Positions 14,729-35,254 of a stretch of DNA of 46,667 nucleotides are shown piece after piece (the first letter of the stretch is position 1; each line of letters opens with the position of its first letter). The notes below the pieces were generated by a model, which saw only the letters and a program-made list of their open reading frames with translations, made no database searches and had not been told where the DNA came from. Origin of the DNA: a virus; IMG/VR virus record IMGVR_UViG_3300032893_000002, positions 1 to 46,667 of that record. One strand, 5' to 3'. The position numbers and the translations under genes were made by a program.

Positions 14729-15490
14729 ATGCACAAACCTCTAGGCATTAAAAATTACGGAAGCATCGGCCATCTACCTCAGAGCCGTCTGGGACCAGGA
14801 GATCATAAGGTTCCAGACGGACAGGCCGCTATATGTATTGAACAAACAAGAGATGAGTATGATAGAGTAATTGTTACAGAAAAATTAGACGGTTCGAATT
14901 GTGGTGTAGCTTTACTTGATGGACAGATTTTAGCTTTAGGTAGAGCAGGATATTTAGCACAATCCTCTCCTTACGAACAGCATCAACTATTTGCCTACTG
15001 GGTTAGACAAAATGAAGCAAGTTTTCGTAAAATTCTACGAGAAGGCGAACGATGCGTCGGCGAATGGCTGGCGCAAGCACATGGAACTAAATACGACTTG
15101 CCTTGTCCGCCGTTCTGCGTTTTTGATATTATGAAAGGACGTGAGCGCGCTCCGTGGAGCGAAGTATTAGAACGTTGCTATCCTTTAGTTAATACTGTTC
15201 CAGTATTACATGATGGAGGAGCCGTAGCGATAGAAACAATTATGCATGATTTAAATGCTGTTCCAAGGGCGTATGGACAATGCGATGAAAAAAGATTTTA
15301 TGGTTGGTTTGGTGCGATGGAAGAAGTAGAAGGAGCTGTTTGGCGAGTTGAAAGAAAAGGAAAATTTGACTTTATGGCGAAGTATGTCAATCCAGATAAG
15401 CTTGATGGGAAGTACTTAGAAAAAGTAAGCGGACAGCCGCCTATATGGAATTGGAGACCAAATGCTGAAGATAGTGTTATCAATTTATAA
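14729..15490 (+). CDS. ATP-dependent polynucleotide ligase-like nucleotidyltransferase (RNA ligase-like, 253 aa)
   Basis: Covalent nucleotidyltransferase motifs in order: I VTEKLDGSN (KxDG), III CVGEWL, IV EGAVWRVERKG, V KYV; size fits small RNA-ligase family (PF09414-like) rather than DNA ligase. Confidence 0.55.
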   Translation: MHKPLGIKNYGSIGHLPQSRLGPGDHKVPDGQAAICIEQTRDEYDRVIVTEKLDGSNCGVALLDGQILALGRAGYLAQSSPYEQHQLFAYWVRQNEASFRKILREGERCVGEWLAQAHGTKYDLPCPPFCVFDIMKGRERAPWSEVLERCYPLVNTVPVLHDGGAVAIETIMHDLNAVPRAYGQCDEKRFYGWFGAMEEVEGAVWRVERKGKFDFMAKYVNPDKLDGKYLEKVSGQPPIWNWRPNAEDSVINL

Positions 15491-20423: not shown

Positions 20424-20966
20424 ATGTCTCGCCTTCTTCTAAGTATCTGCGCTCTAATTTCTATCTCTTTAATTGTGCTCGCTCCTATTTTATTAGGAGA
20501 TGCGCATCCGCGTCATCATATATTTGGAGATACATTTGATGTTCAGCCCCTAATTAACGCGAGCGGGCAAGTCATCCAGATGAACATCAGTGTTTTTAGT
20601 GGAGGTCTTGTAAAAGGCTCTTACAACAGTAAGAAGTATGGCGGTATTTGTAACACAAATGCCCCACATTGTTATGGAACTGATGGGCTGGGCAATTGGC
20701 GTTTTCTTTTCACTGGCCAGCATTTTTGTGTTAATACTTGTACATATACAGCTACAGGCGATTTGATAGTAAATAAGCCGATTCAATTACCGGATGGTTC
20801 TACGACTCTGCAGCTTTACGCTATACTATATGGGACTTATGTCAGCGATTCAGGTGTTGTAAGAGATAACGTGATGGCATATTACAATTCATATACAGAC
20901 CCTGCAGTTGACAGCACGACAGCGCTTGCTTACGGCGGTCTAACAATAGTATTTCAGGATAATTAA
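20424..20966 (+). CDS. secreted or membrane-anchored hypothetical protein (180 aa)
   Basis: N-terminal hydrophobic helix LLLSICALISISLIVLAPILLG; Gly/Thr/Tyr-rich beta-type composition; TTGACA-like promoter upstream at 20386. Confidence 0.45.
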   Translation: MSRLLLSICALISISLIVLAPILLGDAHPRHHIFGDTFDVQPLINASGQVIQMNISVFSGGLVKGSYNSKKYGGICNTNAPHCYGTDGLGNWRFLFTGQHFCVNTCTYTATGDLIVNKPIQLPDGSTTLQLYAILYGTYVSDSGVVRDNVMAYYNSYTDPAVDSTTALAYGGLTIVFQDN

Positions 20967-21071
20967 GCAAAGGTGAGATTATGGCAACAAAATGGCCAAT
21001 CACAACGCATTGACGCATCCTTAACAATATAAAATTACAGCTTGACATTTGAACATACCTATATTATCTTT

Positions 21072-21108
21072 ACAAGTAAGTAATATTACTTGCTACTTAC
21101 TTGTACAA
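21072..21108. promoter_or_regulatory. nested palindromes upstream of terS
   Basis: ACAAGTAAGTA(21072-21082)...TACTTACTTGT(21094-21104) inverted repeat flanking self-complementary AGTAATATTACT, followed by TTGTACAA palindrome ending at the terS ATG. Confidence 0.4.
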
Positions 21109-21843
21109 ATGCGCGTTAAACTACAAGAACAGCCTATACAAGCGCGGCCGGTAAAGTCGCTCCCGGCTCCAGCCCATCCATCTGAGACAAGTAAAAGTAT
21201 AGAAAAAACTGAGAAAATAGATGCGTTATCTAAGAAATTAGGGTTAACGCCGAAGCAAAAACTCGCCGCAGACTATTACCTTCAAAACTTCAATAAGTAT
21301 AAAGCTGCGATTAAAGCAGGTTATTCAGAGTCTGTAGCAAACTGCGCAGAAGATAATATTTTTAGTGTTCCTGCTGTTCGCGACTACATCAATCAAAAAA
21401 TAAATCGACGCTTTAGAAAAGAAGAATTTTCAGCAGAACAAGTATTGATGCAGATTGAAAATGCGGCATCAGCAAATTTGCTTGACTATGGTAATGTTAC
21501 AGAAGATGGCGGATTTGAGTTGGATCTTACGAAAGTAGATAGATATTTAGCAGCAAACATTCAAGAGTACTACATCGATGCTGCAGGCAAACCTAAGATT
21601 AAGTTAATTGACAAGAAATGGGCACTTGAGAAGAAAGCTCAGCTATTGAAGATGTTTGAAACATCTCAAGGTCCAGGCGCCGAGAGCGAGCCTTTGACAA
21701 TTCAATCGCTCGATGCAATAGTACAGAAAGTTGTTACAAATAATACAATAAACCAAAATATTACAGTTAATGTTGGAGCAAGGGAAGCTCAGCAGTTTTC
21801 TCAAATTTTAGAAGGCAGCGATGATAGTTTATCTAATTCATAA
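21109..21843 (+). CDS. terS: terminase small subunit
   Basis: Trimmed from track ORF 21049..21843 to MRVKLQ...; contains the LTPKQKLAADYY motif typical of phage small terminase subunits; lies immediately upstream of terL with only a homing endonuclease between. Confidence 0.55.
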   Translation: MRVKLQEQPIQARPVKSLPAPAHPSETSKSIEKTEKIDALSKKLGLTPKQKLAADYYLQNFNKYKAAIKAGYSESVANCAEDNIFSVPAVRDYINQKINRRFRKEEFSAEQVLMQIENAASANLLDYGNVTEDGGFELDLTKVDRYLAANIQEYYIDAAGKPKIKLIDKKWALEKKAQLLKMFETSQGPGAESEPLTIQSLDAIVQKVVTNNTINQNITVNVGAREAQQFSQILEGSDDSLSNS

Positions 21844-22486
21844 TATACAAAACGAAAAAGTCTATGTTGGTATTACGAAGCATCAGTTTAAGCATAGATG
21901 GGATGAGCATTGTGATGCAGCATATAAGTATAATATGCAGTGGCATCTTTCAAATGCAATTCGTTTGTATGGAAAAGATTCTTTCTATCATGAAATCTTA
22001 GCTGTTGTTGCTACAGAAGAAGAAGCCAAGATATTAGAAAGGCTTTGGATTATAACTTTGCGTTCTTTTGATTCAGAATTTGGCTATAATATGACTTATG
22101 GAGGAGACGGCGTAAATCCGAGTTTTTTACGCGGAACTATCAGGAAAGAAATTTATGGAATTGAATCAGAAAAGCAAAGAGGCATAGCCATAAGTCTTGC
22201 AAAAAAAGGCAAACCAAGTTGGAAAAAAGGAACAACAAATATTGAACTTTATGGAGAAATAAAGGCTGCAAAAATTGCAGAGCAGGTATCAAAAACAAAG
22301 ACAGGTAAATCGAACATAAAACGAATAGGAAAGCCGGGTGCTCTTCTTGGAACTATTAGGAAATTAGCTTACGGAGAGCAATCCGAATTTGCAAGAGCAA
22401 GAGCTATAAGTGCAGCTAAAAAAGGAAAGCCTTCTCCCCGAAAAGGAAGAATCTTTCCGAAACAGATTGTAGCTGCATCATTATAA
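21821..22486 (+). CDS. GIY-YIG homing endonuclease with NUMOD-like C-terminal repeats
   Basis: N-terminal IYLIHNIQNEKVYVGIT...HRWDEH GIY-YIG core; repeated KKGKPSWKKGT / KKGKPSPRKG DNA-binding modules; paralog of 33779..34417; inserted between terS and terL. Confidence 0.85.
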   Translation: MIVYLIHNIQNEKVYVGITKHQFKHRWDEHCDAAYKYNMQWHLSNAIRLYGKDSFYHEILAVVATEEEAKILERLWIITLRSFDSEFGYNMTYGGDGVNPSFLRGTIRKEIYGIESEKQRGIAISLAKKGKPSWKKGTTNIELYGEIKAAKIAEQVSKTKTGKSNIKRIGKPGALLGTIRKLAYGEQSEFARARAISAAKKGKPSPRKGRIFPKQIVAASL

Positions 22487-22547
22487 AAAGTTAACAGGCC
22501 GGCAGATTGCCTTTTACTGCACAGATGTAGGTTATGGAATATTGTCT

Positions 22548-22712
22548 ATGAATATTTTTAATTTTTTTGTTGTTAATCGAGAAACAGGGGAAGAGATTGC
22601 ATTAGGCGATAATCCAGAATGCTCAATAGAGCAGGTTCTGTATATGATGTCACAAGGAACTACCCGAGAAAATTACTCAGAAAAATGGGCTTTCGAAATT
22701 AGAGAAGTATAA
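22548..22712 (+). CDS. small ORF (54 aa, below track cutoff)
   Basis: Hand translation MNIFNFFVVNRETGEEIALGDNPECSIEQVLYMMSQGTTRENYSEKWAFEIREV; no SD. Confidence 0.2.
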   Translation: MNIFNFFVVNRETGEEIALGDNPECSIEQVLYMMSQGTTRENYSEKWAFEIREV

Positions 22713-22723
22713 GAGCTAGTATA

Positions 22724-22975
22724 ATGGGAATTTGCGTCATCACACATAATCAGGCAAAGAAGTGGGAAGATACAGACGTTAGGCCGAATTGTTCACATCA
22801 TTTTCATATATCTGCAAAACAGGCATATATTGCCGTAGGCGAAGATAATGCGAATTGGTTCGATGGCCCATCTTCAAGAGCAATAGTTTTTCATGATTGC
22901 GTATTAAGATATGAGTGGCAGGCTAGAAAAAGTATAGGGTTTAACGTTTTGCAGATGGTACCAATTAGAAAATGA
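22724..22975 (+). CDS. hypothetical protein (83 aa)
   Basis: ATG ORF whose ATG lies inside a TAGTATAAT motif; stop overlaps terL start. Confidence 0.4.
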   Translation: MGICVITHNQAKKWEDTDVRPNCSHHFHISAKQAYIAVGEDNANWFDGPSSRAIVFHDCVLRYEWQARKSIGFNVLQMVPIRK

Positions 22976-25908
22976 GTATATCCCCTAGAGATCGAAGAAT
23001 TGCGGATACAGTACTAGATCCAGTTAAGTTTGCTAAACTATACTTCGATATTGATTTGTGGGGAAAGCAGAAAGAGATTTTAAACTCAATTGCTGTTAAT
23101 CAACGTACGGCTGTTAAGAGTTGCCACTCAAGTGGAAAATGTGTTGCTGCAGATGAGGTTCTAACGTTAGCAGACGGTTCGAGAATAAAAGCTAAAGATC
23201 TTATTGGCAGAAGTTTTGCATTGCCTACATTAGATGAAGAAGGACATGTTGTTGCTGCAGCAGCAAAAGCAGAATTTAATGCAGTTGAAGAAGTATTTAT
23301 AATAACTACGGAATCCGGAAAGCAGATTGTAAGAAATGCGGAACACCCGCTTTGGCGCGGCGAACGGCTGCCGTGGAACTTAGGTGAGAAAGATACAAAA
23401 TTAACGTTCGGACCCGGCAAAAATTTTGGCGCAAAGAAATTCAATTTGCCAAAAAACATTAGTTGGAGTGATGTAAGAGGAACAATATTTCCCAGAGGAT
23501 GGACTTCAGTTGCGGAGTTAAAAGAAGGCGATTACGTAGCTATGGCTGCTTCATTGCCAGTTTTTGGCTCAGAAGAAATATGTGAAGCAGAATTAAAAAT
23601 TCTTGCCTATTTAATAGGTGATGGGTGCGTTTCTCAGGACGGGGCTCCTGGGTTTACTCAACAAGAAAATAAACAATTAGAAGAATTTCGTTTTTGTGTA
23701 GAAGCAATAGGCTGTAGGCTACATAGACATAACGATCTGGACTACTCAGTTTACGGACAAGGAACGAAACACGTAAAAAGAAAAAATCCTGCATCTGAAT
23801 TAGTAAGAAAGCATGGATTAGCTGGTAAAAAATCAAAAGATAAATTTGTTCCAGAAGTAGTGTTCTCTTTAACAAAAGAACAGACAGCAATTTTTTTATC
23901 GCGCTTATTTGCAACAGATGGTTGGGCAGAGATAAGGGGAATTTATTATTCTAGTACTTCATTTCGTTTAGTACAGGATATTCGAGAACTTCTTCTTCGT
24001 TTTGGAATTATTGCTGATATTAGCAAGAAAAGTACATTTTGGCTATATAAAGGAGTAGAAAAAACAGGCATAGCCTACGATCTTAGCATAAACAGAGCTG
24101 CCAATATAATAGCGTTTTGCGAAGAAATCGGAATTTACGGAAAAGAGCAACAGACTGTAAGAGCATTGGCAAATGCTCGAGAATCTATTGCACGCTGTTC
24201 TGCAGAACATTTTCACAAAACTGGAACTTCGGCACGAACAAAGACGAATTTTGGAAGAGGCCAGCATAGCAGTTTATGGAGAATGAAAACTGCTCCAAAA
24301 GGCACATACTGGGAAAAGATTAAATCTATTGAATATAGAGGTATAGAAGAAACAGTAGCAATAGAAGTTCCAGACTACGGCACGTTTTTAACACAATTTT
24401 GGGAGCATAATACATTTACATCAGCACTAGCAACACTTTGGTTTCTTGCGTCGCATCCAAAAGAAGCAATTGTAATTACAACTGCTCCTACTTATAATCA
24501 GGTTCAGAAGCAGCTATGGGGCGAAATTAAGTCGTTACTAATTAAGAGTAAGCTGAAGTGGCCAGAGCCATCGTTAACAGAATTAAGATTACATCCGAAG
24601 AGATATGCAACTGGATTAACAACATCTGTTACTAAAGGCGATGAGGGCGTTAAGTTTCAAGGTTTTCACGCCGATGACATTCTAGTAATATTAGACGAAG
24701 CTCCAGGCGTAGAGCCAAAGATTTGGGAAGCTATTGAAGGCGCACGAGCTGGTGGCAACGTAAAGATTCTTGCTATCGGAAACCCAACAATTGCTAGCGG
24801 ACCGTTTCACGATGCGTTTGTAAATAATCGTTCCGGCTGGAATTGCATATCAATTAGCGCATTTGACACACCGAACCTTCAAGGTATAGAATTAGAACAG
24901 CTTATTGATCCAAATCATCCAAAATATCTTACGGATGCGCAATTAAAAGAGAATCAGCAGAGTTTTTTAACAACAAGATTTTGGGTTAAAGAAAAGTATT
25001 TTGAATGGGGTCCAACACATCCTGCATGGGAGACTCGTGTTCTTGGCTGCTTTCCATCGCAGAGCGATGATGCTTTATTCGGGCTAATGTACCTAGAGAA
25101 AGCACGAGATAGTGATCTTAAAGCATCGCCAGCGGACAAAGTTGTAGCAGGATTAGATGTAGCTGGACCAGGAGAAGATGAAACAGCGTTAGTAATTAGA
25201 AAAGGTCCGGAGATTCTATATAGTAATGCTTGGGCAACTGCTGATCCGAGAGGCAAAGTTGTTGCGGCATTGAATCAATACAGAAGTGAGTTATCTGCTG
25301 TTAATGTGGATAAGTTAGGAATTGGATGGGGAATGTACACTCACTTAAAAGAGTTGGGATTCCCAGTTGTAGCTATTAATATTACAGAGACAAGTACTGA
25401 TCCGGAACAGTTTTTTAACTCACGCGCTGAATTTTGTTGGGGATTTAGACTTAGACTTCAACAAGGACAAGTAAGCGGCCTTCTAGATGAAAAGACAATT
25501 GGGCAATTAGCTGGAATGCGATTTAAGCAGAATGCTAGAGGACAAACAGAAATTGAATCTAAAGATGCTGCATTTAAACGCGGTGTACATAGTCCAGATA
25601 GAGCTGAAGCTGTTTTGTTAGCTTTCGCAGAGCGAAATAAATCATATAGCGCACTTGAGTATTACAAAGGAGTTATGAGTAGTATGGAGAAAGCACAAGC
25701 AGCTTTAATGATGAAGCCAGCAATGCCAGACAAACCAAAGGAATGTCCTACATGTCGAGCCGTTTGCGTTGTACAGCTTGCGAGTGGGTTTCGTTGTAAT
25801 CAGTGTGGATGTCAATTCGGCGGAAAGGGAAGTTCAATCGGACAACCTAATCAGCGTACAGAGTACTTACAAAAATTGGATGCTGGTAGACGTAACTTAT
25901 GGAAGTAA
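22972..25908 (+). CDS. terL: terminase large subunit, interrupted by an intein (exteins 22972..23139 and 24412..25908)
   Basis: Spliced sequence gives Walker A KSCHSSGK|TFTSALATLWFLA; Walker B ILVILDEAPG; C-terminal nuclease-like region and terminal CxxC cluster; intein flanked by Cys1 and His-Asn / +1 Thr. Confidence 0.85.
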   Translation: MSISPRDRRIADTVLDPVKFAKLYFDIDLWGKQKEILNSIAVNQRTAVKSCHSSGKCVAADEVLTLADGSRIKAKDLIGRSFALPTLDEEGHVVAAAAKAEFNAVEEVFIITTESGKQIVRNAEHPLWRGERLPWNLGEKDTKLTFGPGKNFGAKKFNLPKNISWSDVRGTIFPRGWTSVAELKEGDYVAMAASLPVFGSEEICEAELKILAYLIGDGCVSQDGAPGFTQQENKQLEEFRFCVEAIGCRLHRHNDLDYSVYGQGTKHVKRKNPASELVRKHGLAGKKSKDKFVPEVVFSLTKEQTAIFLSRLFATDGWAEIRGIYYSSTSFRLVQDIRELLLRFGIIADISKKSTFWLYKGVEKTGIAYDLSINRAANIIAFCEEIGIYGKEQQTVRALANARESIARCSAEHFHKTGTSARTKTNFGRGQHSSLWRMKTAPKGTYWEKIKSIEYRGIEETVAIEVPDYGTFLTQFWEHNTFTSALATLWFLASHPKEAIVITTAPTYNQVQKQLWGEIKSLLIKSKLKWPEPSLTELRLHPKRYATGLTTSVTKGDEGVKFQGFHADDILVILDEAPGVEPKIWEAIEGARAGGNVKILAIGNPTIASGPFHDAFVNNRSGWNCISISAFDTPNLQGIELEQLIDPNHPKYLTDAQLKENQQSFLTTRFWVKEKYFEWGPTHPAWETRVLGCFPSQSDDALFGLMYLEKARDSDLKASPADKVVAGLDVAGPGEDETALVIRKGPEILYSNAWATADPRGKVVAALNQYRSELSAVNVDKLGIGWGMYTHLKELGFPVVAINITETSTDPEQFFNSRAEFCWGFRLRLQQGQVSGLLDEKTIGQLAGMRFKQNARGQTEIESKDAAFKRGVHSPDRAEAVLLAFAERNKSYSALEYYKGVMSSMEKAQAALMMKPAMPDKPKECPTCRAVCVVQLASGFRCNQCGCQFGGKGSSIGQPNQRTEYLQKLDAGRRNLWK
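23140..24411 (+). mobile_element. intein (424 aa) with LAGLIDADG homing-endonuclease domain inside terL
   Basis: Begins CVAADEVLTLADGS (block A, Cys1), block B T..H (NAEHPLW), LAGLIDADG motifs LAYLIGDGCVS and LSRLFATDGWAE, ends ...FWEHN followed by Thr; in-frame with terL. Confidence 0.85.
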
Positions 25909-25931
25909 ATTTTATGGAAGGAGCTTGCACA

Positions 25932-26120
25932 ATGCGTCTAGAAAAGCGCGTAGAACTCCTGCCTCCGTTTTGTCCTCTTCACAAAGACGAAGACGGAAAT
26001 CCTATTCCAGCTCCATGTCTATTTTGTTTAGTTCCAGAAGTTTACGATATTGTATATTCTACAGGAGATCATGAGCGTGAAATTATATATTTCACTGCTA
26101 GTGATGAAAATTCGAATTAA
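25932..26120 (+). CDS. hypothetical protein (62 aa)
   Basis: Trimmed to MRLEKRVEL... with GGAAGGAGCTTGCACA SD. Confidence 0.4.
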   Translation: MRLEKRVELLPPFCPLHKDEDGNPIPAPCLFCLVPEVYDIVYSTGDHEREIIYFTASDENSN

Positions 26121-26122
26121 TT

Positions 26123-26815
26123 ATGGATATTCCGAAGTGTAGTGTCTACTCTGTCTACTTCAAAAATATCGGCCAGTCTGTTTTAGACTATCAGAGAAAA
26201 TGCGTCGAATTTTTTCTTCCAGAAGGATGGACTTTTAAACAAGTTTTAAATTCTGAGAAGGATGTTTTCGAGGATGGTAAGCTCGTATACCCGCATGCTG
26301 CTATGCTGCGTGAATGTGTTGAAACTGCTGAGAATGATGCTATTATATTTCTAGATATCGACTGCATACCTGTAAATAAATTAGCTTTTCCAATGCTTGC
26401 TATGGGAGCTAAAGACGGAATACTAACAGGAGCAATTCAGCGAGCAAATCATATTCAGAATGACGAGCATTTGTATGTTGGTCCATTCTGCATGTCGTTT
26501 TCGAGACAGAAGTATTTTGAATTTGGAGCTCCTACTTTTAATGCTACAGCGCGTGGGGATATAGGAGAAGAATTAACGTATAGATGGCATGAACGAGATG
26601 GGATGGTAGCATATTTTTGGCCTTCACAGGTGGAAAAGCCGCTTTGGAAACTCTTTAATGATGTTGATTTTGGGTTAGGAACAACTTACGATAATCTATT
26701 TTATCACTTTTTCTGTATTCGCGAGGAAGCTGCTCAAAATATTTTTGTTGAAAGATGTAAGATGTTCTTAGAAAGATTTGAAGAAGAGAAGATAGAAATT
26801 ATAGCTGCAGTTTAA
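26123..26815 (+). CDS. putative nucleotide-sugar transferase (GT-A-like), 230 aa
   Basis: DxD-type motif AIIFLDIDCIP after a beta-strand, as in GT-A folds; weak call. Confidence 0.3.
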   Translation: MDIPKCSVYSVYFKNIGQSVLDYQRKCVEFFLPEGWTFKQVLNSEKDVFEDGKLVYPHAAMLRECVETAENDAIIFLDIDCIPVNKLAFPMLAMGAKDGILTGAIQRANHIQNDEHLYVGPFCMSFSRQKYFEFGAPTFNATARGDIGEELTYRWHERDGMVAYFWPSQVEKPLWKLFNDVDFGLGTTYDNLFYHFFCIREEAAQNIFVERCKMFLERFEEEKIEIIAAV

Positions 26816-26832
26816 TAAAAGGAGATAAAAGA

Positions 26833-27093
26833 ATGTCGACGCCCGCGATGGCAACAGAAGTTTTTATTGCAGAAGCAGTTCCAAACACAGCTGCTTCACA
26901 ACCGCAACTTATGGATGGCAATACTAACTTAGCAAATACGCCGCAAGCAACAGGGTTGATTACGGTACCGCAATCGCCTTCTGGTACTTCGACTACAAAC
27001 ACAGGACGAGCACTAGAAGCAACAGCGACGTATTTAGCATCAAAGTTGAATATTTTGAATGTTGGTACAACACCTCCGCCAGCACACAATTAA
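26833..27093 (+). CDS. hypothetical Thr/Ala/Pro-rich protein (86 aa)
   Basis: AAAGGAGATAAAAGA SD; low-complexity T/A/P-rich sequence. Confidence 0.45.
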   Translation: MSTPAMATEVFIAEAVPNTAASQPQLMDGNTNLANTPQATGLITVPQSPSGTSTTNTGRALEATATYLASKLNILNVGTTPPPAHN

Positions 27094-27112
27094 TTAGAGG
27101 TCTACCCTGTCT

Positions 27113-27868
27113 ATGTCAGAGAATCCGTTAAAGGTACTTCAACCGCGTCATGCTGAATTAAACATGTATGATGTAATGAAAGGTACAATTCAAAGATTTT
27201 TTGCTGTTGTTGCAACAGAGCCAATTACGTATTCAGGCGAGACGATCGAACCTAAACCCTTAATCGTCTCGCCTGATATATTCAGAGGTACAGCATGCCC
27301 AGAGATGTGCGGCGCGTGTTGTGTTCGCGGAACATTAGATTTTCTTCCTGGCGATCCTAGACCAAAAGAAGCTACACAAAGATTTGTAGAAGTAAATGGA
27401 AAGAAAATTGAGATTTGGTCGGATATGCAAGAAGATAACGCCGATAGATGGTGTCGGCATTTGAATTTGAAAAATGGACGATGTGGCATTCATTCCGAAG
27501 CATATTATCCTTGGTTATGTGATTTTGCATTAATCAATGTAAAACATTTTAAGGATAAGTATTGGCTTGGAACTACGAAATTTTCAAGAACATGGAATTT
27601 TAGAAAGATTACAGATACAGACGAAGAATTTAAAGCGCGGAAAGCTGCACATAAGCCCGGTGCGCTATGCAGCATAGAACCTTTTGAGCCAATATCTGAA
27701 CAGACGGTTGCTAATACAAGGAGAAAGCTGAGAGGACTAGAGAAGTGGATTAACCATTTCCAAATTGCGAATCGGATGAAAAGTATTATGGCTTGGGCAA
27801 ATATGGATCCGATTCCTACAAAGCCTTTATATCTAGGAATTAAATCAGAACGAGGAGTTTTAATTTGA
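27113..27868 (+). CDS. CxxCxxCC (YkgJ/FliB-like putative Zn/Fe-chelating domain) protein
   Basis: CPEMCGACC matches the CxxCGxCC signature of the YkgJ/FliB family; additional Cys/His downstream (WCRH, RCGIH). Confidence 0.4.
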   Translation: MSENPLKVLQPRHAELNMYDVMKGTIQRFFAVVATEPITYSGETIEPKPLIVSPDIFRGTACPEMCGACCVRGTLDFLPGDPRPKEATQRFVEVNGKKIEIWSDMQEDNADRWCRHLNLKNGRCGIHSEAYYPWLCDFALINVKHFKDKYWLGTTKFSRTWNFRKITDTDEEFKARKAAHKPGALCSIEPFEPISEQTVANTRRKLRGLEKWINHFQIANRMKSIMAWANMDPIPTKPLYLGIKSERGVLI

Positions 27869-29517
27869 GTAATACACCTGTCACCCCTGTCGAAAGAAAA
27901 GTTACAATTGTTGTATTAGCTAAGTACAAAGAAATTTTTCAAGGATTTGTTGAGTCAGTAGAGAAGATAGCTCCAAATTTTCAAAAAGTTTTAGTAGCTG
28001 ATGGAACAGAGGTACTTGAAGTATTAGAAGCTTTGCCAGCAAAAGCAAAAAGCACCTGGACAGTAATTCCTGGACCAGAGAAATTTGCTATGGCAGGGAA
28101 CGGAAATCTAGGACTTAAAGCTGTTCCTTCTGATAGCGATATACTATATGTTGGCGACGATGTTAGATTTCTACATGAAAAAACTGTAGAACGCTTACAA
28201 GAGTATGCTTATAGAGAACCAACTATTGGCATACTTTCTCCTAGATTATTAGGAAGAGCAAGCAATGCGTTAGCGAATCCTTCAGCAGACATTACGTTTA
28301 TTAGACCTATGGAAATGTGGTTTCCATGTGTTTATATCAAACGTGAACTGATTGAAAAAATAGGATATTTAGATGAAAGGTTTAATGATTTTGGATCTGA
28401 TGACCTTGACTACTGCATTCGTGCTCAGATTGCGGGCTATAAATTGGCTGCAACTTCGTTTGTTACTGTTCAACATGAAATGAGTGTTGAGGGAGGACCT
28501 ACAACATTCGTTAAGAAGTTAGGTGTTGCGCAGTGGCAACAGCAGCAAGCTAAAGCACTAGAAAAATTGCGTGAGAAATATGAAGTTAGCATTCCTATAT
28601 TCGAGCGCGCACTTAGATCAGGCGATAGTAAGCTGCTTGTTAAAAAGACGATTGAAGTTATAGATCAAACGAAGAAGAAGCCGCCTACACCAGAGGAAGC
28701 TAAGAAAATTCTTGAGAAACGAAGTATATACATCGCAACGCCCGCTTATGGCGGGATGATGACTGTTAATTATGTTACTTCGTTGTTAGGCATTAATGAT
28801 ATTTGTAGGAATTACAATGTTAAGCTTGAATATTCGTTCGTTTACAATGAAAGTTTAATTACGCGTGCTCGGAATAAGATGGTGTTCGACTATCTTAATA
28901 AGAGTAGCTGTACGGATTTTTTCTTCATTGATGCTGATATATCTTTTGATCCAAAAGATATTGTAAGTTTACTGTTTCATGACGAACCAATTATCGGATG
29001 CCCTTGCGTTAGGAAGAATTTAAGATTTGATCGTGTTGCTGCGGCTGTAAAACGGAACCCCGATAAAGAATATACAATTGATGAAATGGCTCGGATGTGT
29101 GGAGAATTCGTAGTTAATTTTCCTCCGACAGGCGCGCCTCAGATGATGAATTTGGGACAGTTGATAGAAGTACAGGATGTAGGAACCGGAATAATGCGTG
29201 TTAGACGTGAAGTCTTCGAGGAGATTGAGAAGAAATTTCCGGATCGCTATTACGTGCCAATGCAAGGTGAAGGCGAAGAAACTCAGCCGCATTATATGTT
29301 CTTTCAATCATGTATAGACGCAGAATCAGGAAAATTTAATCCAGGCGGATATCCGCATTACATTGCAGAAGATTTTGCATTTTGTAGATTAGCTCAGAAA
29401 GCAGGCTTTAAGATCTACTTAGCGCCTTGGATCAAAAGTGACCATATGGGCGCCCTCTTGTTTAAGGGAGACCTCGAGATGGTAGCCAAGGTGGGAGGAG
29501 GCCTCAGGCGCGCATGA
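27865..29517 (+). CDS. two-domain glycosyltransferase (GT2-like N- and C-terminal modules)
   Basis: N-domain: YVGDDVRF (DxD) and FGSDDLDYCIRAQIAGYKL; C-domain: FFFIDADISFDPKD (DxD) and AEDFAFCRLAQKAGFKIY; both pairs follow the GT2 pattern D-x-D ... ED-x-x-x-C/R-x-x-x-x-G-x-K-I. Confidence 0.55.
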   Translation: MSNTPVTPVERKVTIVVLAKYKEIFQGFVESVEKIAPNFQKVLVADGTEVLEVLEALPAKAKSTWTVIPGPEKFAMAGNGNLGLKAVPSDSDILYVGDDVRFLHEKTVERLQEYAYREPTIGILSPRLLGRASNALANPSADITFIRPMEMWFPCVYIKRELIEKIGYLDERFNDFGSDDLDYCIRAQIAGYKLAATSFVTVQHEMSVEGGPTTFVKKLGVAQWQQQQAKALEKLREKYEVSIPIFERALRSGDSKLLVKKTIEVIDQTKKKPPTPEEAKKILEKRSIYIATPAYGGMMTVNYVTSLLGINDICRNYNVKLEYSFVYNESLITRARNKMVFDYLNKSSCTDFFFIDADISFDPKDIVSLLFHDEPIIGCPCVRKNLRFDRVAAAVKRNPDKEYTIDEMARMCGEFVVNFPPTGAPQMMNLGQLIEVQDVGTGIMRVRREVFEEIEKKFPDRYYVPMQGEGEETQPHYMFFQSCIDAESGKFNPGGYPHYIAEDFAFCRLAQKAGFKIYLAPWIKSDHMGALLFKGDLEMVAKVGGGLRRA

Positions 29518-29639
29518 TATTGGTTTATTTAGTACATTCAACTTCTAGTGGAAAGTATTATGTAGGCTGGACTAGTAAAACTTTCGCTGAGCGTTGGTCT
29601 GTTCACTTAGACTCAGCAAAACATGGAGCAAAATGGTGA
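29514..29639 (+). pseudogene. decayed GIY-YIG homing-endonuclease remnant (41 codons)
   Basis: Translates MILVYLVHSTSSGKYYVGWTSKTFAERWSVHLDSAKHGAKW*, matching the N-terminal GIY-YIG core of the two intact paralogs but truncated. Confidence 0.55.
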
Positions 29640-30051
29640 GCTGTTGGCTACCGAGCGGGCACAGGAAACCGCACCAAATATTATGGCAGACGATACACAA
29701 TTAGCTGTAGCAGATACGCTGTTAACTCCTCTGCGGTGGATTGCAGTCATTCTTGCATTACCTATTAATTTTATTGCGTCCATAACAGAATTTGTTAGAA
29801 AAAGGCGATATAATCCAGAGAAGGTAGTATGTCCTGGATGCGGCTTTAAAGGCGATAGCGGCACAGATTATAAGACATGCCGTATTGAGCATACGTTAAC
29901 AGGCGGACCAGAAAAAGCTGTTAATGAGCATACATGTTTTAGATGCGGCGCATTATATTACACATCGCTTTTCTTGCCTGCCGAAAAATGGTTGGCTAAG
30001 CAGCCTATTAGTGATAAGATAGTAAGAGCTGCGCAGCGGACAGTCCTATAA
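29623..30051 (+). CDS. hypothetical protein with TM helix and zinc-ribbon (142 aa)
   Basis: Hydrophobic segment WIAVILALPINFIASI; CPGCG...CFRCG. Confidence 0.4.
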   Translation: MEQNGELLATERAQETAPNIMADDTQLAVADTLLTPLRWIAVILALPINFIASITEFVRKRRYNPEKVVCPGCGFKGDSGTDYKTCRIEHTLTGGPEKAVNEHTCFRCGALYYTSLFLPAEKWLAKQPISDKIVRAAQRTVL

Positions 30052-30061
30052 GGAGAGTGAA

Positions 30062-30247
30062 GTGGCTTACTCGACATTAACAATAAGATTAGTTCCAAAT
30101 TCGTCTACGAATACTACTACGCTTACGCTCCAATCGTCAAGTTTAGTGGAAGCACGGTCATATGTTCAAAATCTGACTAACGGACTATTTGACGACACTG
30201 GCGTATTTTTTCCTTTGACAAATGTAATTAGTATTACGATAAGTTAA
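30062..30247 (+). CDS. hypothetical protein (61 aa)
   Basis: Non-ATG start in track; Thr/Ser-rich. Confidence 0.3.
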   Translation: MAYSTLTIRLVPNSSTNTTTLTLQSSSLVEARSYVQNLTNGLFDDTGVFFPLTNVISITIS

Positions 30248-30250
30248 ATT

Positions 30251-31843
30251 ATGGCACCGAAATCTATTTTTGGTTTTGGCGGAACTCCGAATGTAATATT
30301 TCGACAGCTTGCTCCAATTACAAATGCGGCAGCAAAATTAAAATCGTCGTTATATTCACCGCCTCAGGAAACTATTGATACGATCGTGGATGGGCTGTGG
30401 CCTAATCCGCTGCAGCCTATTACTCCGATTAGGCCTCCCGGAGCAGAACCGCTTAGTTGGCCTTTTAATTGGGGCCAGAATATTATGTATACTCCGCGCC
30501 AAGATGCGGAGTATTCTTCTGAGGAACTTCGAAGATTATCAAAGTATCCATTAGCTAGAATTTGTATTGAAAATAACAAGGATCTGCTCACTAGGATGCC
30601 TTGGAAGATTCAATTAAAGCCTCTTCCAGGAGAAACGAGTAAAGCTAGAGCTTCAAAAAGTAAGAATGATCCCAAGTTGAAGCAGCTGAATGATTTCTTT
30701 GCGCGTCCAAATTGGGAGCAAGATTGGCCAGAATTTATTCGCCCCGTATTAGAAGATATGCTCGTAATCGATGCTGCAAGCATATTTGTAGGCAGGGACA
30801 TAAAGACGAATAAAGTTACAGAATTGAGATGGGTAGAAGGTGCTTCGATCACAAGGTTAATCGACCAACATGGTTGGACACCTAAGCCGCCTAATCCTGC
30901 ATACCAGCAGAATTGGGAAGGATACCCTAGAATTGATTTAACAACAGACCAATTAGTATATAGACCTAGAAATATTTGTCCTCGCGGAACATATTCAAGC
31001 TACTTCTATGGTATGAGCCCAACAGAGCAGATAGCAAAAGAAATTCTAATTGGTATGGAACGTTTACAATACACATGGGATTTTTATTCGGAAGGATCAG
31101 TTCCAAACGCAATGTTATTTGCGCCAATTAATACTCCGCCTGATAAGATTAAAGAAGCACAACAGATTATTGATGCCGCATTAGCAGGCAAACTTGGTCC
31201 AAGACGCAGATTACAAGTAATGCAAGGATTTCAAGAAGAAGGAAAAGCAGAGCAATTGCATTTTCCAAAAGAACCTTCTATGGCAGACACATTTGATGAT
31301 CTGCATATTAGAAAAGTTTGTTTTGCATATGGAACAAGTCCACAGCGTTTACAAAGACAGATGAATAGAGCTGCTGCAGAACAAGCACAAGAATCTGCAG
31401 AAGAAGAAGGAACGTTACCTTGGTTGAAATGGATGAAAGGAACTGTAGATTATATCATCCAAGTTATAATGCAGGAACCAGATTACGAATTTGCATTTGA
31501 ACCATTTGTCGAGACAAATAGATTAAAACAAATGCAAGCAGATGAAATTGCTGTTCGTTATGGAATATATTCAATTAACGAAATTCGAGAACAGCATGGA
31601 GATGATCCGCGCCCAGAAGCAGAAGCCGATGAGATCGGAACAATGACTCCAAGTGGATTCTTGTCGATTACAGAACGTATTAAGCCGACAACAGGAGGCG
31701 GATTTGGTTCTGTAGCGAAGACTGTGAAGCCTAATGGCCGGCTTGCTTCGTTTGACGAACTTGAGTTTACTCCACACTGTAGCAGCCATGCATATAACTT
31801 TCATGGTTGTTTAGAATGTGACTATCTTAGAGATTCAAAATGA
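30251..31843 (+). CDS. putative portal protein (530 aa)
   Basis: Size, position (after terL, before protease/capsid) and acidic helical C-terminal region; no residue-level signature, so positional inference. Confidence 0.45.
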   Translation: MAPKSIFGFGGTPNVIFRQLAPITNAAAKLKSSLYSPPQETIDTIVDGLWPNPLQPITPIRPPGAEPLSWPFNWGQNIMYTPRQDAEYSSEELRRLSKYPLARICIENNKDLLTRMPWKIQLKPLPGETSKARASKSKNDPKLKQLNDFFARPNWEQDWPEFIRPVLEDMLVIDAASIFVGRDIKTNKVTELRWVEGASITRLIDQHGWTPKPPNPAYQQNWEGYPRIDLTTDQLVYRPRNICPRGTYSSYFYGMSPTEQIAKEILIGMERLQYTWDFYSEGSVPNAMLFAPINTPPDKIKEAQQIIDAALAGKLGPRRRLQVMQGFQEEGKAEQLHFPKEPSMADTFDDLHIRKVCFAYGTSPQRLQRQMNRAAAEQAQESAEEEGTLPWLKWMKGTVDYIIQVIMQEPDYEFAFEPFVETNRLKQMQADEIAVRYGIYSINEIREQHGDDPRPEAEADEIGTMTPSGFLSITERIKPTTGGGFGSVAKTVKPNGRLASFDELEFTPHCSSHAYNFHGCLECDYLRDSK

Positions 31844-32034
31844 ATATAACAAAAGAAGCACTTTTATCAGCAGGCGCACAATTGATAAAAGGCCCGAATG
31901 GTGAAGAATGGATTGTGTGTCCAAAGGGCATATACAATAATCTTGCGAGAGTAGCAGCAAGTAATAAAGTAGAGCAAGCTATTGAGAAGGCGCGAGATGA
32001 AGGATTTGAATCCTTCTTGAAGGGAGAGTTTTAA
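31840..32034 (+). CDS. hypothetical protein (64 aa)
   Basis: ATGA overlap with portal stop. Confidence 0.4.
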   Translation: MNITKEALLSAGAQLIKGPNGEEWIVCPKGIYNNLARVAASNKVEQAIEKARDEGFESFLKGEF

Positions 32035-32036
32035 GT

Positions 32037-32279
32037 ATGCCCTATACTGCTAGCACTGTGCCATCTTATGTTCCGAAGGATAAAGCAAAACAATGGGCGG
32101 CGATATGGAATTCTGCTTATGAGCAAAAACTAAAAGAAGGTGCATCAAAAGAAAAAGCAGAACAATATGCTTTCGCAGTTGCTAGCGGTAAGGCTGGTCC
32201 AAATGCTAAAGCTTACGATATCGACGAAGAATTGGCCATGCTAAAGTTGGAAGAAGGCTTAACCGGCTTCAAGTATTAA
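32037..32279 (+). CDS. hypothetical protein (80 aa)
   Basis: ATG ORF; followed by terminator. Confidence 0.4.
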   Translation: MPYTASTVPSYVPKDKAKQWAAIWNSAYEQKLKEGASKEKAEQYAFAVASGKAGPNAKAYDIDEELAMLKLEEGLTGFKY

Positions 32280-32307
32280 ATTCACCTATGGAACTTCGGT
32301 TCTATAG

Positions 32308-32339
32308 CCCCCGACTCTTCAGGGAGTCGGGTTTATTTT
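32308..32339 (+). terminator. rho-independent terminator
   Basis: Stem CCCGACTC(32310-32317)/GAGTCGGG(32324-32331), 6-nt loop, followed by TTTATTTT. Confidence 0.7.
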
Positions 32340-32362
32340 CGAATTAATAGGAGTAATTACAA

Positions 32363-33778
32363 ATGGCAGAGCAATTTAGAAAATTTGTCCAACTCATGAA
32401 GGTGGACGAAGAGAATCATATGACTTGGGGCATCGTTACGAGCGAAGTTCCCGATAAGGAAAATGAAATCTGCTCATATGCCGACGCTAAAAAAGCATAT
32501 AAAAAATGGTCTGAAGATTTTCTTGAAAAGACTACTGCCGCAGGGCAAGAACCGTCAATGGGTAATATTAGAATAATGCACGGCCTTCAGATTGGCGGAA
32601 AAGTAATTAAGTTGGAATTTAAAGATGAAGAGAAGCAAGTTTGGTTGGGAACGCAGCCTGCTACCGATGAAGTATGGAAGCTAATTAAAGGCGGGTACAT
32701 AACTGGGCTTTCTCACGGCGGGCGGTATCTCTGGAAGAAAGAAGTAGGAGAGTATACAAGATACGCACCAGAGATTTCAGAAGTGTCTTATGTTGATAAT
32801 CCGGCTAATCCTGATGCATCATTTGCTTATGTAAAGGCAGATGGTTCTATGGAATTGCGGAAATTTGCTAAAGATGTGCCTTCTGATCCAGAACTTGCAA
32901 AGCTACTTAAAGGTAGTGAGCCAGCTATACCGACAGAAGTAGGTTCTATGCCGACTGCGACAATGCCTGTGCCTGAAAAAGTAACTCCAGGAGTTAGCAC
33001 TTGTTCTTGCTCTTGTCCACAGTGTAAAGGCAGCAATTGTGGTAATTGTCAAGCAGAGGCTAAGTGTGAATCTTGTAAAACGGCTAAAGCAGCAGGATGT
33101 TCCTGCGGATGCGCGAGTTGTAAAGAAGGTAAATGCTCTAATTGCTCAGCCGAAACAAAATGTGAGATGTGCATGAGTGCAGGCGTTAGTACAGAAACAG
33201 GGTTTAACTACTACGATCTTGAAGGGCAAAAGAAGATGGCAGGTAAAGCTGTAAAGTATTTAGTTACTGACTCTGATGGGAAAGGCCATCTTCCATATAC
33301 GTCATCTAGCGGAACTCCTAGCAGACGCCTTTGTGGTGCTGCGTGGGCTGCTTTATTTTCTCCAGGCGGACATCGTGGAAATAAATACGAAGGTCCGGAC
33401 AAGGAGAAAGCAAAAGCGAAGCTAAAACAAGTGTATTCAAGTCAAGGATGGGATACTCCATCTGAGAAGACAGTTGCTGTAGAAGATATGTTAAAGGCTC
33501 TACTGGAAGACAGAATTGATAATGCAGTCCAAAGCAGATTTTATGGATTAACAAAACTCACAAAAGGATTATACAATGTTAGTAGATTTGCTGAAATAAT
33601 TGAGGCATTGAAATTTCTGTGTTTAACAATTAAAGACGAAGGAAATATAGAAGGAGGAGACGAATTTGATTTTAGTGTTTCTGCGGATTTATTGGAGGCA
33701 CTTGATGCGCTTCTCGGCTCGTTTTTAGATTATACAGAAAATCAAATTGCTGAAATTAGAAATGAACATATTTTATAA
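32363..33778 (+). CDS. prohead protease-like protein (S78/HK97-type N-domain) with metallothionein-like Cys repeats and helical C-domain
   Basis: NIRIMHGLQIGGKV...ITGLSHGG resembles the His...G-x-S-x-G layout of the HK97 prohead protease family; aa 214-270 contain two about 28-aa tandem repeats with 8 Cys each; AATAGGAGTAATTACAA SD. Confidence 0.45.
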   Translation: MAEQFRKFVQLMKVDEENHMTWGIVTSEVPDKENEICSYADAKKAYKKWSEDFLEKTTAAGQEPSMGNIRIMHGLQIGGKVIKLEFKDEEKQVWLGTQPATDEVWKLIKGGYITGLSHGGRYLWKKEVGEYTRYAPEISEVSYVDNPANPDASFAYVKADGSMELRKFAKDVPSDPELAKLLKGSEPAIPTEVGSMPTATMPVPEKVTPGVSTCSCSCPQCKGSNCGNCQAEAKCESCKTAKAAGCSCGCASCKEGKCSNCSAETKCEMCMSAGVSTETGFNYYDLEGQKKMAGKAVKYLVTDSDGKGHLPYTSSSGTPSRRLCGAAWAALFSPGGHRGNKYEGPDKEKAKAKLKQVYSSQGWDTPSEKTVAVEDMLKALLEDRIDNAVQSRFYGLTKLTKGLYNVSRFAEIIEALKFLCLTIKDEGNIEGGDEFDFSVSADLLEALDALLGSFLDYTENQIAEIRNEHIL

Positions 33779-34417
33779 ATGAATAAAAGTTGGGTTATTT
33801 ACCAAATTCAAAACGTTGTAAACGGAAAGTACTACATTGGCTATACAGAGAATTTTACTGTTCGATGGGAGTTACATCGTCAAGATGCCAAAAATGGAAA
33901 TACATGCCATTTCTACTGCGCAATCAGAAAGTATGGTGTTGCTGCATTCAAACATCAAATTCTAGCGCAAACTAGGAGCTTAGAAGACGCTAAGCAATTA
34001 GAGAAGTTATGGATAGCTGCATTGCGATCATTTGATCGTTCTATAGGTTATAACATGACCTATGGAGGCGATGGCGTTGTTCATTTACCAGAAACTAAAG
34101 AAAAAATGAGCCGTAAATGCAGAGAAGCTTGGATTAAAAGAAAACAATATAGATCCATAACAGATGGGGTTACGCAGAAACGGATTTTAATTCAGGAAGC
34201 TATTCCAATAGGATGGAGGTATGGAAGAACTCCATTTAAGAAAAAGAATTCTATAACAGCAGTTCAGAAATTGTGCTGGGCTAGGCAAAGACGAGCTGCA
34301 AAACTAGTTTGTTATTTTTGTTATAAATCATTTACGCCAAGTTCAAAAGAGCAAGTATTTTGCTCTAACTCGTGTTCAAATAAAGCGCAAAGAACACTTG
34401 GATACGAATTTAAATAA
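33779..34417 (+). CDS. GIY-YIG homing endonuclease
   Basis: WVIYQIQNVVNGKYYIGYTENFTVRWELH GIY-YIG core; LWIAALRSFDRSIGYNMTYGGDGV nearly identical to the 21821 paralog; C-terminal Cys4 zinc finger. Confidence 0.85.
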   Translation: MNKSWVIYQIQNVVNGKYYIGYTENFTVRWELHRQDAKNGNTCHFYCAIRKYGVAAFKHQILAQTRSLEDAKQLEKLWIAALRSFDRSIGYNMTYGGDGVVHLPETKEKMSRKCREAWIKRKQYRSITDGVTQKRILIQEAIPIGWRYGRTPFKKKNSITAVQKLCWARQRRAAKLVCYFCYKSFTPSSKEQVFCSNSCSNKAQRTLGYEFK

Positions 34418-34438
34418 ATTCATAAGGAGAAATAAGCA

Positions 34439-35170
34439 ATGTCTGATCTTTTCAAGATGCATCCAAAAGCTTTGGCTGCACACTTCAAGAAAGCCGCTGC
34501 TCATCATGAGAAAATGGCCGATCATCACGAAAAGTGCATGAAGGCACACGAAGCTCATGCTGACCATCATGAAGATATGCAGGATAAAACTGAGGATGTT
34601 CATAAGGGACATCACAAGGCCAGCGCGCAATTTCATAAATCGATGGCTAGTCACCACGAGAAACTTCATAAATCTCATGCTGCACACGCAGAGCATCTTC
34701 ACAAAGTATGCGCTGCATGTCAAGCAGGCGAGGATACAAAGAAAGTAGCAGAATTATTGGAAATTGAAGAAGGAGAATTAAGCATGGAAAAGGCAACAGA
34801 AGTCACAACTCAGAATCAACCAACTCCGGCAGCTCAGCCAACTGCTGCACCTCAGCCAGTTAGTACAGCTCCAGGCGCTGGAATTGATGTAAACGAAACA
34901 ATTAACAAGGCGCTGGACAACAAGCTAACAGAAGCTGTTGATTCTGCCTTTTCACGTGTTCTTAACAGCGAGGACTTCAATCGTAAGGTTGATCAGGCAA
35001 TCGCTGGTAAATTACTTGAGAAACTTGGACAGACAACTGTTCCGGGCGAGATCAAGACTTTCGCAGTCCCACGTCCAGGTGAAGGCAACCTAGGCAAAGT
35101 AAATGGACAAGTTAAGCCAGATTTCACTGGTGTAGATCCTGAACTTGCTCATTTTGCTGCAATCGAGTAA
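34439..35170 (+). CDS. His-rich protein, possible scaffolding protein (243 aa)
   Basis: N-terminal 95 aa contain repeated (A/S)HHEK / HxxH units (more than 20 His), followed by acidic coiled-coil and Pro/Ala/Gln linker; sits between protease and capsid gene; AAGGAGAAATAAGCA SD. Confidence 0.35.
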   Translation: MSDLFKMHPKALAAHFKKAAAHHEKMADHHEKCMKAHEAHADHHEDMQDKTEDVHKGHHKASAQFHKSMASHHEKLHKSHAAHAEHLHKVCAACQAGEDTKKVAELLEIEEGELSMEKATEVTTQNQPTPAAQPTAAPQPVSTAPGAGIDVNETINKALDNKLTEAVDSAFSRVLNSEDFNRKVDQAIAGKLLEKLGQTTVPGEIKTFAVPRPGEGNLGKVNGQVKPDFTGVDPELAHFAAIE

Positions 35171-35254
35171 TTTAAATCTTTCTTCTTCGCATCCTGTCGC
35201 GATGAGATTTAATAGTTTGTAATATTTTTGTTTTCATAACAGGAGAATATAGCA

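Follow-up and report, generated by a model that had tools for sequence, protein, structure and literature searches.

Free-standing homing endonuclease genes (HEGs) have their standard example in phage T4, which carries 12 seg and mob genes in its intergenic regions, among them segD between head genes 23 and 24; several of these genes are cassettes that have no promoter and are transcribed as part of polycistronic messages already in place (PMC2988022). Clusters of endonuclease genes, termed 'HEG islands', occur in ICP1-like and other phages in the neighbourhood of genes for terminase, capsid and ribonucleotide reductase, and the repetitive DNA-binding domains of the island enzymes have been shuffled between enzymes (Barth et al., PMC10055350). 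An endonuclease that has lost its activity may also be retained, as is the case for the defunct I-TevIII of T4, an HNH enzyme encoded inside an intron and mobilised in trans by mobE (PMC2790892). Here we analyse a 46,667-nt stretch of viral DNA (IMG/VR record IMGVR_UViG_3300032893_000002, positions 1 to 46,667; below, 'the window'), which is part of a 180,030-bp contig of an uncultured phage of ∼180 kb. The packaging and head genes of this phage are interspersed with two intact genes for GIY-YIG enzymes, HEG1 and HEG2, and with a 41-codon remnant of a third. In our view it is very probable that both intact genes code for homing endonucleases of the free-standing GIY-YIG type and are selfish cassettes in the spacers between morphogenesis genes.

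Three open reading frames (ORFs) that an earlier note had placed at 21821-22486, 29514-29639 and 33779-34417, and had read as two paralogous GIY-YIG homing endonucleases with a decayed third copy, all exist exactly there, and each scores over the Pfam cut-off for the GIY-YIG family. These ORFs, their parts and the other elements discussed with them are as follows (ORF boundaries from the ORF list; residue numbers refer to the respective protein).

21821-22486, + strand: HEG1, 221 residues
21821..22114, + strand: catalytic GIY-YIG domain of HEG1, residues 1-98; AlphaFold2 (AF2) model with predicted local distance difference test (pLDDT) >92 over residues 1-90
22118..22447, + strand: putative DNA-binding tail of HEG1, three NUMOD3-like helical repeat units
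23140..24411, + strand: intein with LAGLIDADG domain in terL, 424 residues (terL residues 57-480)
29514-29639, + strand: remnant, 41-codon ORF
29640..29682, + strand: spacer of 43 nt between the remnant stop codon and the w142 ATG at 29683, guanine-plus-cytosine (GC) fraction 0.56
33779-34417, + strand: HEG2, 212 residues
34157..34228, + strand: 'ITDG-x14-IPxGWxxGR' beta-hairpin module of HEG2, residues 127-150
34310..34375, + strand: C-terminal Cys4 zinc ribbon of HEG2, C178-x2-C181-x13-C195-x3-C199, with 'FCS' motif

Catalytic domains and tails of HEG1 and HEG2

Both intact genes match the Pfam GIY-YIG family (PF01541; cut-off 22.6 bits) with a wide margin, HEG1 at E = 4.4e-10 (40.2 bits) and HEG2 at E = 8.7e-12 (45.6 bits); HEG1 also matches a PHROG family annotated as 'homing endonuclease' (E = 2.6e-21). 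Alignment to I-TevI, with Y6, Y17, R27, H31, E75 and N90 as the reference residues, identified the full catalytic set in each protein, including the Arg and Glu that the earlier note had wished to see checked. The residues are Y4, Y15, R26, H30, E73 and N90 in HEG1 (alignment to 1mk0/1ln0, phmmer against PDB sequences) and Y8, Y19, R29, H33, E75 and N92 in HEG2, whose phmmer match to I-TevI has an E-value of 9e-06. These positions are mostly invariant or nearly so in alignments with 19 homologues of HEG1 and with 10 homologues of HEG2. HEG2 as modelled by AF2 (mean pLDDT 89.3) has the fold of the I-TevI catalytic domain, a three-stranded sheet with helices at its flanks; comparison with 1mk0 by Foldseek gave E = 8e-06, TM score 0.85 and root-mean-square deviation 2.1 A at 29% identity. 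The secondary-structure elements follow one another in the same order in the model of the HEG1 catalytic domain.

The C-terminal tails of the two proteins differ, as the earlier note had said: NUMOD3-like repeats follow the catalytic domain in HEG1, and modules ending in a Cys4 ribbon follow it in HEG2. The HEG1 tail consists of units A (residues 100-137), B (138-171) and C (172-209), with A and C 63% identical over 38 residues. The motif of unit B, 'KGxTNIELYGExKA', recurs in P0151, P0159, P0148, P0268 and P0146 (here and below, homologous proteins carry P numbers and related loci carry L numbers). The earlier reading of this tail as NUMOD repeats holds for the three repeat units and for homologues with PF07460, and fails for HEG1 itself at the Pfam threshold. 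We prefer the name 'NUMOD3-like', which is supported indirectly, by the PF07460 matches of the homologues P0129-P0134 (aligned over 61-95% of HEG1) and by the motif 'S-x-AKKGKPS' common to HEG1 and homologues.

For HEG2, whose tail AF2 models with confidence, the predicted tail modules are, in order, a NUMOD3-like helix (residues 104-122), the beta-hairpin and the Cys4 ribbon. The hairpin strands, E124-128 and E133-137, are modelled with pLDDT ∼95, and the hairpin module is present also in P0137 and P0141, twice in P0123 and once in P0122. The four cysteines C178, C181, C195 and C199, previously recognised as a Cys4 finger, are invariant in 11 homologues. The ribbon has weak matches to Pfam DUF2116, 'probable treble clef' (E = 1.2), and to the YacG zinc finger 4tma_J (probability 0.72, TMt 0.53); the zinc-ribbon architecture recurs in L018hegA, L002heg and P0137. 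From the different tails we reasonably infer that HEG1 and HEG2 would recognise different targets.

The catalytic cores had been called near-identical, a description that suits only one short block. Over the whole domain HEG1 and HEG2 agree in 49 of 97 residues (51%) and, in the codon alignment, in 59% of nucleotides; within the shared 27-residue block, LE(R/K)LWI..LRSFD...GYNMTYGGDGV, the agreement rises to 21/27 residues and 68% of nucleotides. This block is typical of the whole subfamily, P0123, P0128 and L018hegA included. An exhaustive HMMER search returned 42,467 cluster representatives at E<=0.001, and HEG1 ranked only about 100th by score for HEG2. By catalytic domain, the nearest proteins to HEG1 are P0147 (60%) and P0155 (58%), and those nearest to HEG2 are P0136 (58%) and P0122 (57%). 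In a neighbour-joining tree of 159 domains, HEG1 and HEG2 are not sisters, each being about the 22nd to 24th among the neighbours of the other; all window copies fall within one subclade that holds 26 of the 159 tips. The term 'paralogous' can therefore be kept in the sense of one subfamily, and not in the sense of sister copies. HEG1 and HEG2 belong to one subfamily, are not recent duplicates and most likely arrived separately. The nearest database proteins are 40-60% identical to the window enzymes.

Two proteins close to the HEG1 domain, P0128 (locus L020) and P0147 (L021), are encoded on other phage contigs next to genes for QueF, radical-SAM and PTPS proteins of the 7-deazaguanine pathway and next to recombination genes; the subfamily thus circulates among phages likely to modify their own DNA.

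The remnant and the three junctions

The cassettes lie in a block of co-oriented + strand genes that extends from terS to the major capsid gene. The neighbouring genes, with coordinates from the ORF list, are the following.

21049-21843, + strand: terS (Pfam Terminase_2, E = 1.5e-19)
22542-22712, + strand: w56, 56 residues, orphan
22724-22975, + strand: w83, conserved small gene
22972-25908, + strand: terL, interrupted by the intein
between terL and GT550, + strand: several small or sugar-related genes
27865-29517, + strand: GT550, weak glycosyltransferase family 2 matches under the Pfam cut-off
29623-30051, + strand: w142, followed by w61
30251-31843, + strand: portal gene, followed by w64 and w80b
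32363-33778, + strand: prohead protease gene
34439-35170, + strand: gene for a scaffold-like protein
35255-37222, + strand: major capsid protein gene
38923-39882: NAD-dependent epimerase/dehydratase, a sugar-modifying gene within the head/packaging module
39882-41102: C-methyltransferase, a sugar-modifying gene within the head/packaging module

The remnant matches the GIY-YIG family with E = 4.4e-06 (27.4 bits), covering positions 2-39 of the 78 in the profile, and BLASTP aligns it with HEG1 (E = 1e-09) and HEG2 (E = 2e-08). It has a native N-terminus, MILVYLVH (compare MIVYLIHN in HEG1, P0128 and P0147), retains Y5, Y16, R27 and H31, and ends ahead of the half that holds Glu and Asn; since it is without these two residues, the product cannot be a nuclease. 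Its identity is 41% to HEG1, 39% to HEG2, 49% to P0123 and 60% over 35 residues to P0147, and its nearest relatives by catalytic domain are P0147 and then P0155. Six-frame tblastn with 17 family members found HEG1, HEG2 and the remnant as the only matches of the family in the 46.7-kb window, and found the Glu/Asn half of the third copy in none of the frames.

The remnant is a truncated copy in a different frame from its neighbours, as described previously: it is read in frame 0, and frame 1 is used by GT550 (from 27865) as well as by w142 (from 29623 or 29683). The start codon of the remnant and the stop codon of GT550 share nucleotides in the sequence ATGA, with GGAGGAGG ∼12 nt upstream of the ATG. 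The possibility, raised in the earlier note, that it belongs to a longer ORF expressed by frameshifting is contradicted by the homologues of w142, which in seven relatives start near window M21 (nt 29683); because these homologues are without a GIY-YIG extension, a longer gene that starts with the remnant and continues by a frameshift can be dismissed. As part of a reading that, taken as a whole, has high probability, the remnant would be the 5′ stump of a third endonuclease gene, left behind when a deletion removed the catalytic half. An in-frame read-through, 'NRTKYYGRRY', was considered as a continuation on account of its likeness to 'AIRKYG' and was rejected; it overlaps the conserved start of w142, and we judged the likeness to be due to chance. 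Remnant and 43-nt spacer together amount to ∼165 nt of extra DNA in comparison with relatives. On its arrival, the endonuclease gene apparently captured the coupled start and displaced that of w142 to 29683 (or 29623). The w142 product looks like a small protein that is hydrophobic near its N-terminus (by eye) and has conserved Cys-X-X-Cys pairs with sub-threshold zinc-ribbon matches; w142, like w56 and w83, was assigned to no family in Pfam and PHROG scans.

To find the same junctions elsewhere, we took ∼20 kb around the portal gene from eight distinct relatives and mapped the window proteins on these loci by tblastn. Portal homologues number in the hundreds on long metagenomic contigs. A single-protein portal scan of IMG/VR found no relative, and profile scans of IMG/VR and Joint Genome Institute (JGI) metagenomes produced few usable loci. 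The closest portal homologue, P0001 (97% identity), is on a 3-kb JGI contig; the closest compared locus is L001, with 68% portal identity. Among GenBank phages, megablast found no DNA-level match to 21000-35200, and the best match of the portal protein has 31% identity.

At the first junction, HEG1 begins with its ATG before terS has ended, and the two genes have 23 nt in common. The earlier note had put HEG1 between terS and terL, which is the right region; more exactly, HEG1 overlaps terS by these 23 nt, and w56 and w83 precede terL. In L001, where terS, the w83 homologue and terL are all present, the terS-w83 spacer has 75 nt, versus 880 nt with HEG1 and w56 in the window. This spacer is a variable region, because L005 has unrelated cargo at the same place. 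The gene w56 has a low GC fraction (0.339), as does HEG1, and belongs to the DNA that the window has in excess of L001; it has no tblastn match at any related locus and no match in Pfam or PHROG, and it may have travelled together with HEG1.

The second junction, between the glycosyltransferase gene and w142, is a 4-nt stop/start overlap in L002, L004, L005 and L018, a 1-nt overlap in L003 and L013, and a 41-nt gap in L001. At the third, HEG2 occupies the precise interval from the protease stop codon to the AAGGAG of the scaffold gene, in agreement with the earlier placement between protease and scaffold: its ATG abuts the protease stop (TAA directly followed by ATG), and 21 nt separate its own stop codon from the scaffold ATG, with the AAGGAG ribosome-binding site preserved. 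The corresponding spacers of L001, L004 and L013 have 30-46 nt and a Shine-Dalgarno motif, the two ORFs overlap in L018, and in L005 and L008 the tblastn matches are ∼50-75 nt apart.

All three junctions are thus endonuclease-free in L001, and likewise in the other relatives that keep the gene order; the comparison of gene order proposed in the earlier note yields endonuclease-minus alleles for each of the three sites. Genes of the same family are found at other places in the relatives: in L002 one precedes the portal gene, and L018 has one that follows the portal gene (38% identity to full-length HEG2, zinc ribbon included) and another within the protease gene (P0123, 55% identity to the HEG1 domain). 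Junctions that are empty in relatives, together with same-family genes at other sites, make the signature of free-standing homing endonucleases. At least six insertion points have been used across the window and three relatives. We suggest tentatively, as a possibility more doubtful than probable, that the head/packaging block of this uncultured clade of 125-180-kb phages is a hot-spot for a GIY-YIG subfamily that is retargeted by tail swaps. If the enzymes are active, the clade offers a natural series for the study of how tail shuffling creates new homing sites and of how essential head genes tolerate splits.

In L018 (a 129,892-bp JGI contig, shared with L019), the 337-residue GIY-YIG gene of P0123, at 10001-11014, splits the prohead protease homologue into ORFs 9134-9997 and 11002-11547, equivalent to residues 4-282 and 295-464 of the window protease. 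Rfam searches at the gathering score found nothing relevant to a group I intron at L018, L002 or L001. The split protease may be a genes-in-pieces arrangement, for which nrdA/mobE of Aeh1 is a precedent. The window protease has a Cys-rich, low-complexity middle part at residues ∼212-275 (CSCSCPQCKGSNCGNC...CSCGCASCKEGKCSNC), variable or absent in relatives, which roughly coincides with the split point of the L018 protease. The major capsid gene of L018 (12420-15413) is also interrupted, after window residue 560, by ∼246 nt (14093-14340), and an ORF with a faint HNH match (14718-15413) follows the interruption; either an intron that escaped detection or a second split gene could explain the pattern.

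The terL gene of the window carries an intein, with a Pfam LAGLIDADG_3 match at E = 7.7e-15. It begins directly after the P-loop 'CHSSGK', at Cys57, and ends with His-Asn480, with Thr481 next. Seven distinct terL-containing relatives are all intein-less and align to residues 1-64 and then from residue 481; the terL of L001, for example, reads '...CHSSSKTFTSAL...'. As judged from its sequence, the intein is a fourth selfish element in the region, and the 978-residue 'terminase' is a terminase of 554 residues plus an intein. In P0051, a portal homologue of 924 residues from a 41,644-bp JGI contig, a LAGLIDADG_3 match (PF14528) hints that another member of the clade has an intein in its portal gene.

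Two other assemblies, contigs of ENA ERZ27256510 and Logan SRR8879131, are 100% identical to the window over 27758-34554 and 33475-34443; because of this identity, neither HEG2 nor the stop codon of the remnant is an artefact of a single assembly, and mis-assembly is unlikely as their source. The GC fraction of the cassettes is 0.356-0.373 versus 0.376-0.452 in the flanking genes, and this slightly lower value fits a foreign origin. The one strong hairpin of terminator type, at 32310-32331, precedes the protease gene and has no connection with the cassettes. Window positions 1-8500, with GC fractions of 0.44-0.53, negative GC skew and minus-strand ORFs, are a separate transcriptional module; the + strand block starts at ∼9000. 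Sugar-modifying genes are interspersed in the head/packaging module (26123-29517 and 38923-41102), an arrangement also seen in L001, and suggest glycosylation of virion or DNA.

Alternative explanations and a proposed mechanism

The selfish-cassette explanation is directly supported by the domain identity, catalytic residues and fold of the enzymes, by the intergenic placement of their genes, by presence/absence among relatives and by the truncation of the third copy. Several points weigh against it. That the genes are expressed, that the enzymes cleave and have particular targets, that the phage is immune to its own enzymes and that homing takes place are what we infer by analogy with described enzymes. 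The match of the HEG1 tail to Pfam NUMOD3 (PF07460) is sub-threshold (E = 0.059, 13.7 bits, cut-off 20.4), and AF2 models this tail with low confidence (pLDDT <50 at residues 99-135 and 167-187, with unit B better). A sigma-70 promoter scan gave 36 sites with 36.3 expected, i.e. no signal over chance. No near-identical copy of HEG1 or HEG2 was found in a second phage, the 100% matches being the same phage in other assemblies. The relatives are also too distant (37-68% protein identity in flanking genes) for the comparison to reveal a cleavage site, a co-conversion tract or a recent instance of homing. The 'ongoing homing and decay' of the earlier note thus stands in respect of presence/absence and the truncated copy, and lacks a recent event. 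We dropped the deduction of cleavage sites from endonuclease-plus versus endonuclease-minus alleles, as the relatives are too divergent at the nucleotide level.

An alternative is that HEG1 and HEG2 are domesticated nucleases that serve the phage, by excluding competing phages or satellites, by degrading host DNA, by repressing neighbouring late genes or by amplifying nearby loci. I-TevI represses its own promoter, and the T4-type SegB has been reported to promote amplification of nearby loci. Both window ORFs are intact, co-oriented and tightly coupled to essential late genes, which favours such a role, and domestication and secondary roles of endonuclease domains are documented in PMC10055350 and PMC13096335. 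Still, no relative examined, the closest included, has an endonuclease at these junctions, which argues against a function conserved across the clade; the composition is foreign-like, and a catalytic domain joined to a modular DNA-binding tail is the canonical architecture of homing enzymes. We regard domestication as quite improbable. A second alternative is strict paralogy: HEG1, HEG2 and the remnant could have come from duplication within the genome, with the tails acquired later, and their common subclade and the block LWIxxLRSFDxxxGYNMTYGGDGV shared by HEG1 and HEG2 speak for it. Yet a block typical of the whole subfamily, the low identity of the two domains and their distant ranks in the tree speak against it, and within-genome duplication is unlikely because HEG1 and HEG2 each have closer relatives elsewhere; such relatives of all three copies (P0147, P0155, P0136 and P0122) are found in other phages.

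The remnant might have been kept for its use, either as the coupled start that formerly belonged to w142 or as a small peptide. Its ATG is placed at the exact ATGA overlap that w142 homologues use in L002, L004, L005 and L018, its ORF has no internal lesion, and GGAGGAGG precedes the ATG. A clean 41-codon ORF is, however, also expected right after a deletion, the sequence comes from one strain only, and the loss of Glu and Asn excludes nuclease function; retention for use has a low probability in our estimation. Least credible of all, with a probability close to nil, are endonuclease genes in group I introns or carried as cargo of a transposon or insertion sequence, even though JGI labels homologues 'group I intron endonuclease'. 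The window has no Rfam match at the gathering score, and a relaxed threshold of E<=1 for 20500-35500 did not bring up a group I intron either. The cassettes have complete genes on both sides in the window, the flanking genes are separate and complete in relatives, and none of the three sites interrupts a gene. Around the cassettes there are no flanking inverted or direct repeats and no target-site duplications, only short repeats at chance level, and Pfam and PHROG scans found no transposase domain.

If HEG1 and HEG2 are selfish homing cassettes, the mechanism may be modelled on the T4 Seg enzymes and I-TevI. The cassettes, being without an evident promoter of their own, would be carried on the late polycistronic message, and their translation would be coupled to that of the upstream gene, as suggested by the 23-nt overlap of HEG1, the ATGA of the remnant and the stop/start contact of HEG2. 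In a co-infection with a cassette-less relative, the C-terminal modules would recognise a particular sequence close to the unoccupied junction, HEG1 by its NUMOD3-like helical repeats and HEG2 by its NUMOD3-like helix, beta-hairpin module and Cys4 zinc ribbon. The N-terminal GIY-YIG domain would then introduce a double-strand break, and recombinational repair from the endonuclease-carrying genome would copy the cassette with flanking markers into the recipient. Once fixed, a cassette would have no targets left and would be free to decay, as presumably happened between GT550 and w142, where the stump would mark the decay phase.

Comparison with known systems

For annotation, these results mean that HEG1, the terL intein, the stump and HEG2 should be treated as selfish elements between terS and scaffold rather than as morphogenesis functions. 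They document endonuclease turnover (gain, tail shuffling and truncation) in an uncultured lineage of large phages, and they provide two new GIY-YIG enzymes with distinct tails as candidate site-specific nucleases. That free-standing GIY-YIG genes can lie between conserved genes of phages is textbook knowledge; the window genes are new sequences, not a new type of element, and the current understanding of homing endonucleases is left as is.

The closest counterparts are the T4 Seg enzymes (SegA-G), which likewise have an N-terminal GIY-YIG domain and a C-terminal tail, DNA-binding in Seg and putatively so here, and are encoded in intergenic positions among conserved genes, head genes included. 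In both systems the genes are co-oriented, are apparently promoter-less and carried on the message of a host operon, and are present or absent among related phages. Differences are that the best GenBank phage matches to the window genes have 24-42% identity (tblastn), that the window phage is from an unrelated uncultured lineage of ∼180 kb, and that the HEG2 tail ends in a Cys4 'FCS' zinc ribbon. With I-TevI (T4 td intron; 1MK0, 1LN0), HEG2 shares the fold (TM score 0.85) and the catalytic Tyr, Tyr, Arg, His, Glu and Asn, as well as the modular 'beads on a string' organisation with a NUMOD3-type helix and a zinc finger. I-TevI is, however, intron-encoded, has its zinc finger in the linker and ends its tail with a helix-turn-helix, whereas the zinc ribbon of HEG2 is C-terminal, HEG1 is without a zinc finger and no intron is present at the window sites.

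In HEG islands, too, several endonuclease genes of different specificity and an intein bracket essential packaging and head genes, although different specificities in the window are a deduction from the tails, and repetitive, shuffled domains, putatively DNA-binding in the window enzymes, are common to both; the island enzymes are mainly T5orf172 and HNH, in contrast to the classical GIY-YIG enzymes and the LAGLIDADG terL intein of the window. The stump, finally, resembles I-TevIII in being a truncated, inactive homing endonuclease gene near a free-standing one that is active in T4 and putatively active here. Unlike I-TevIII, an intronic HNH gene with mobE as its helper, the window stump is of the GIY-YIG family.

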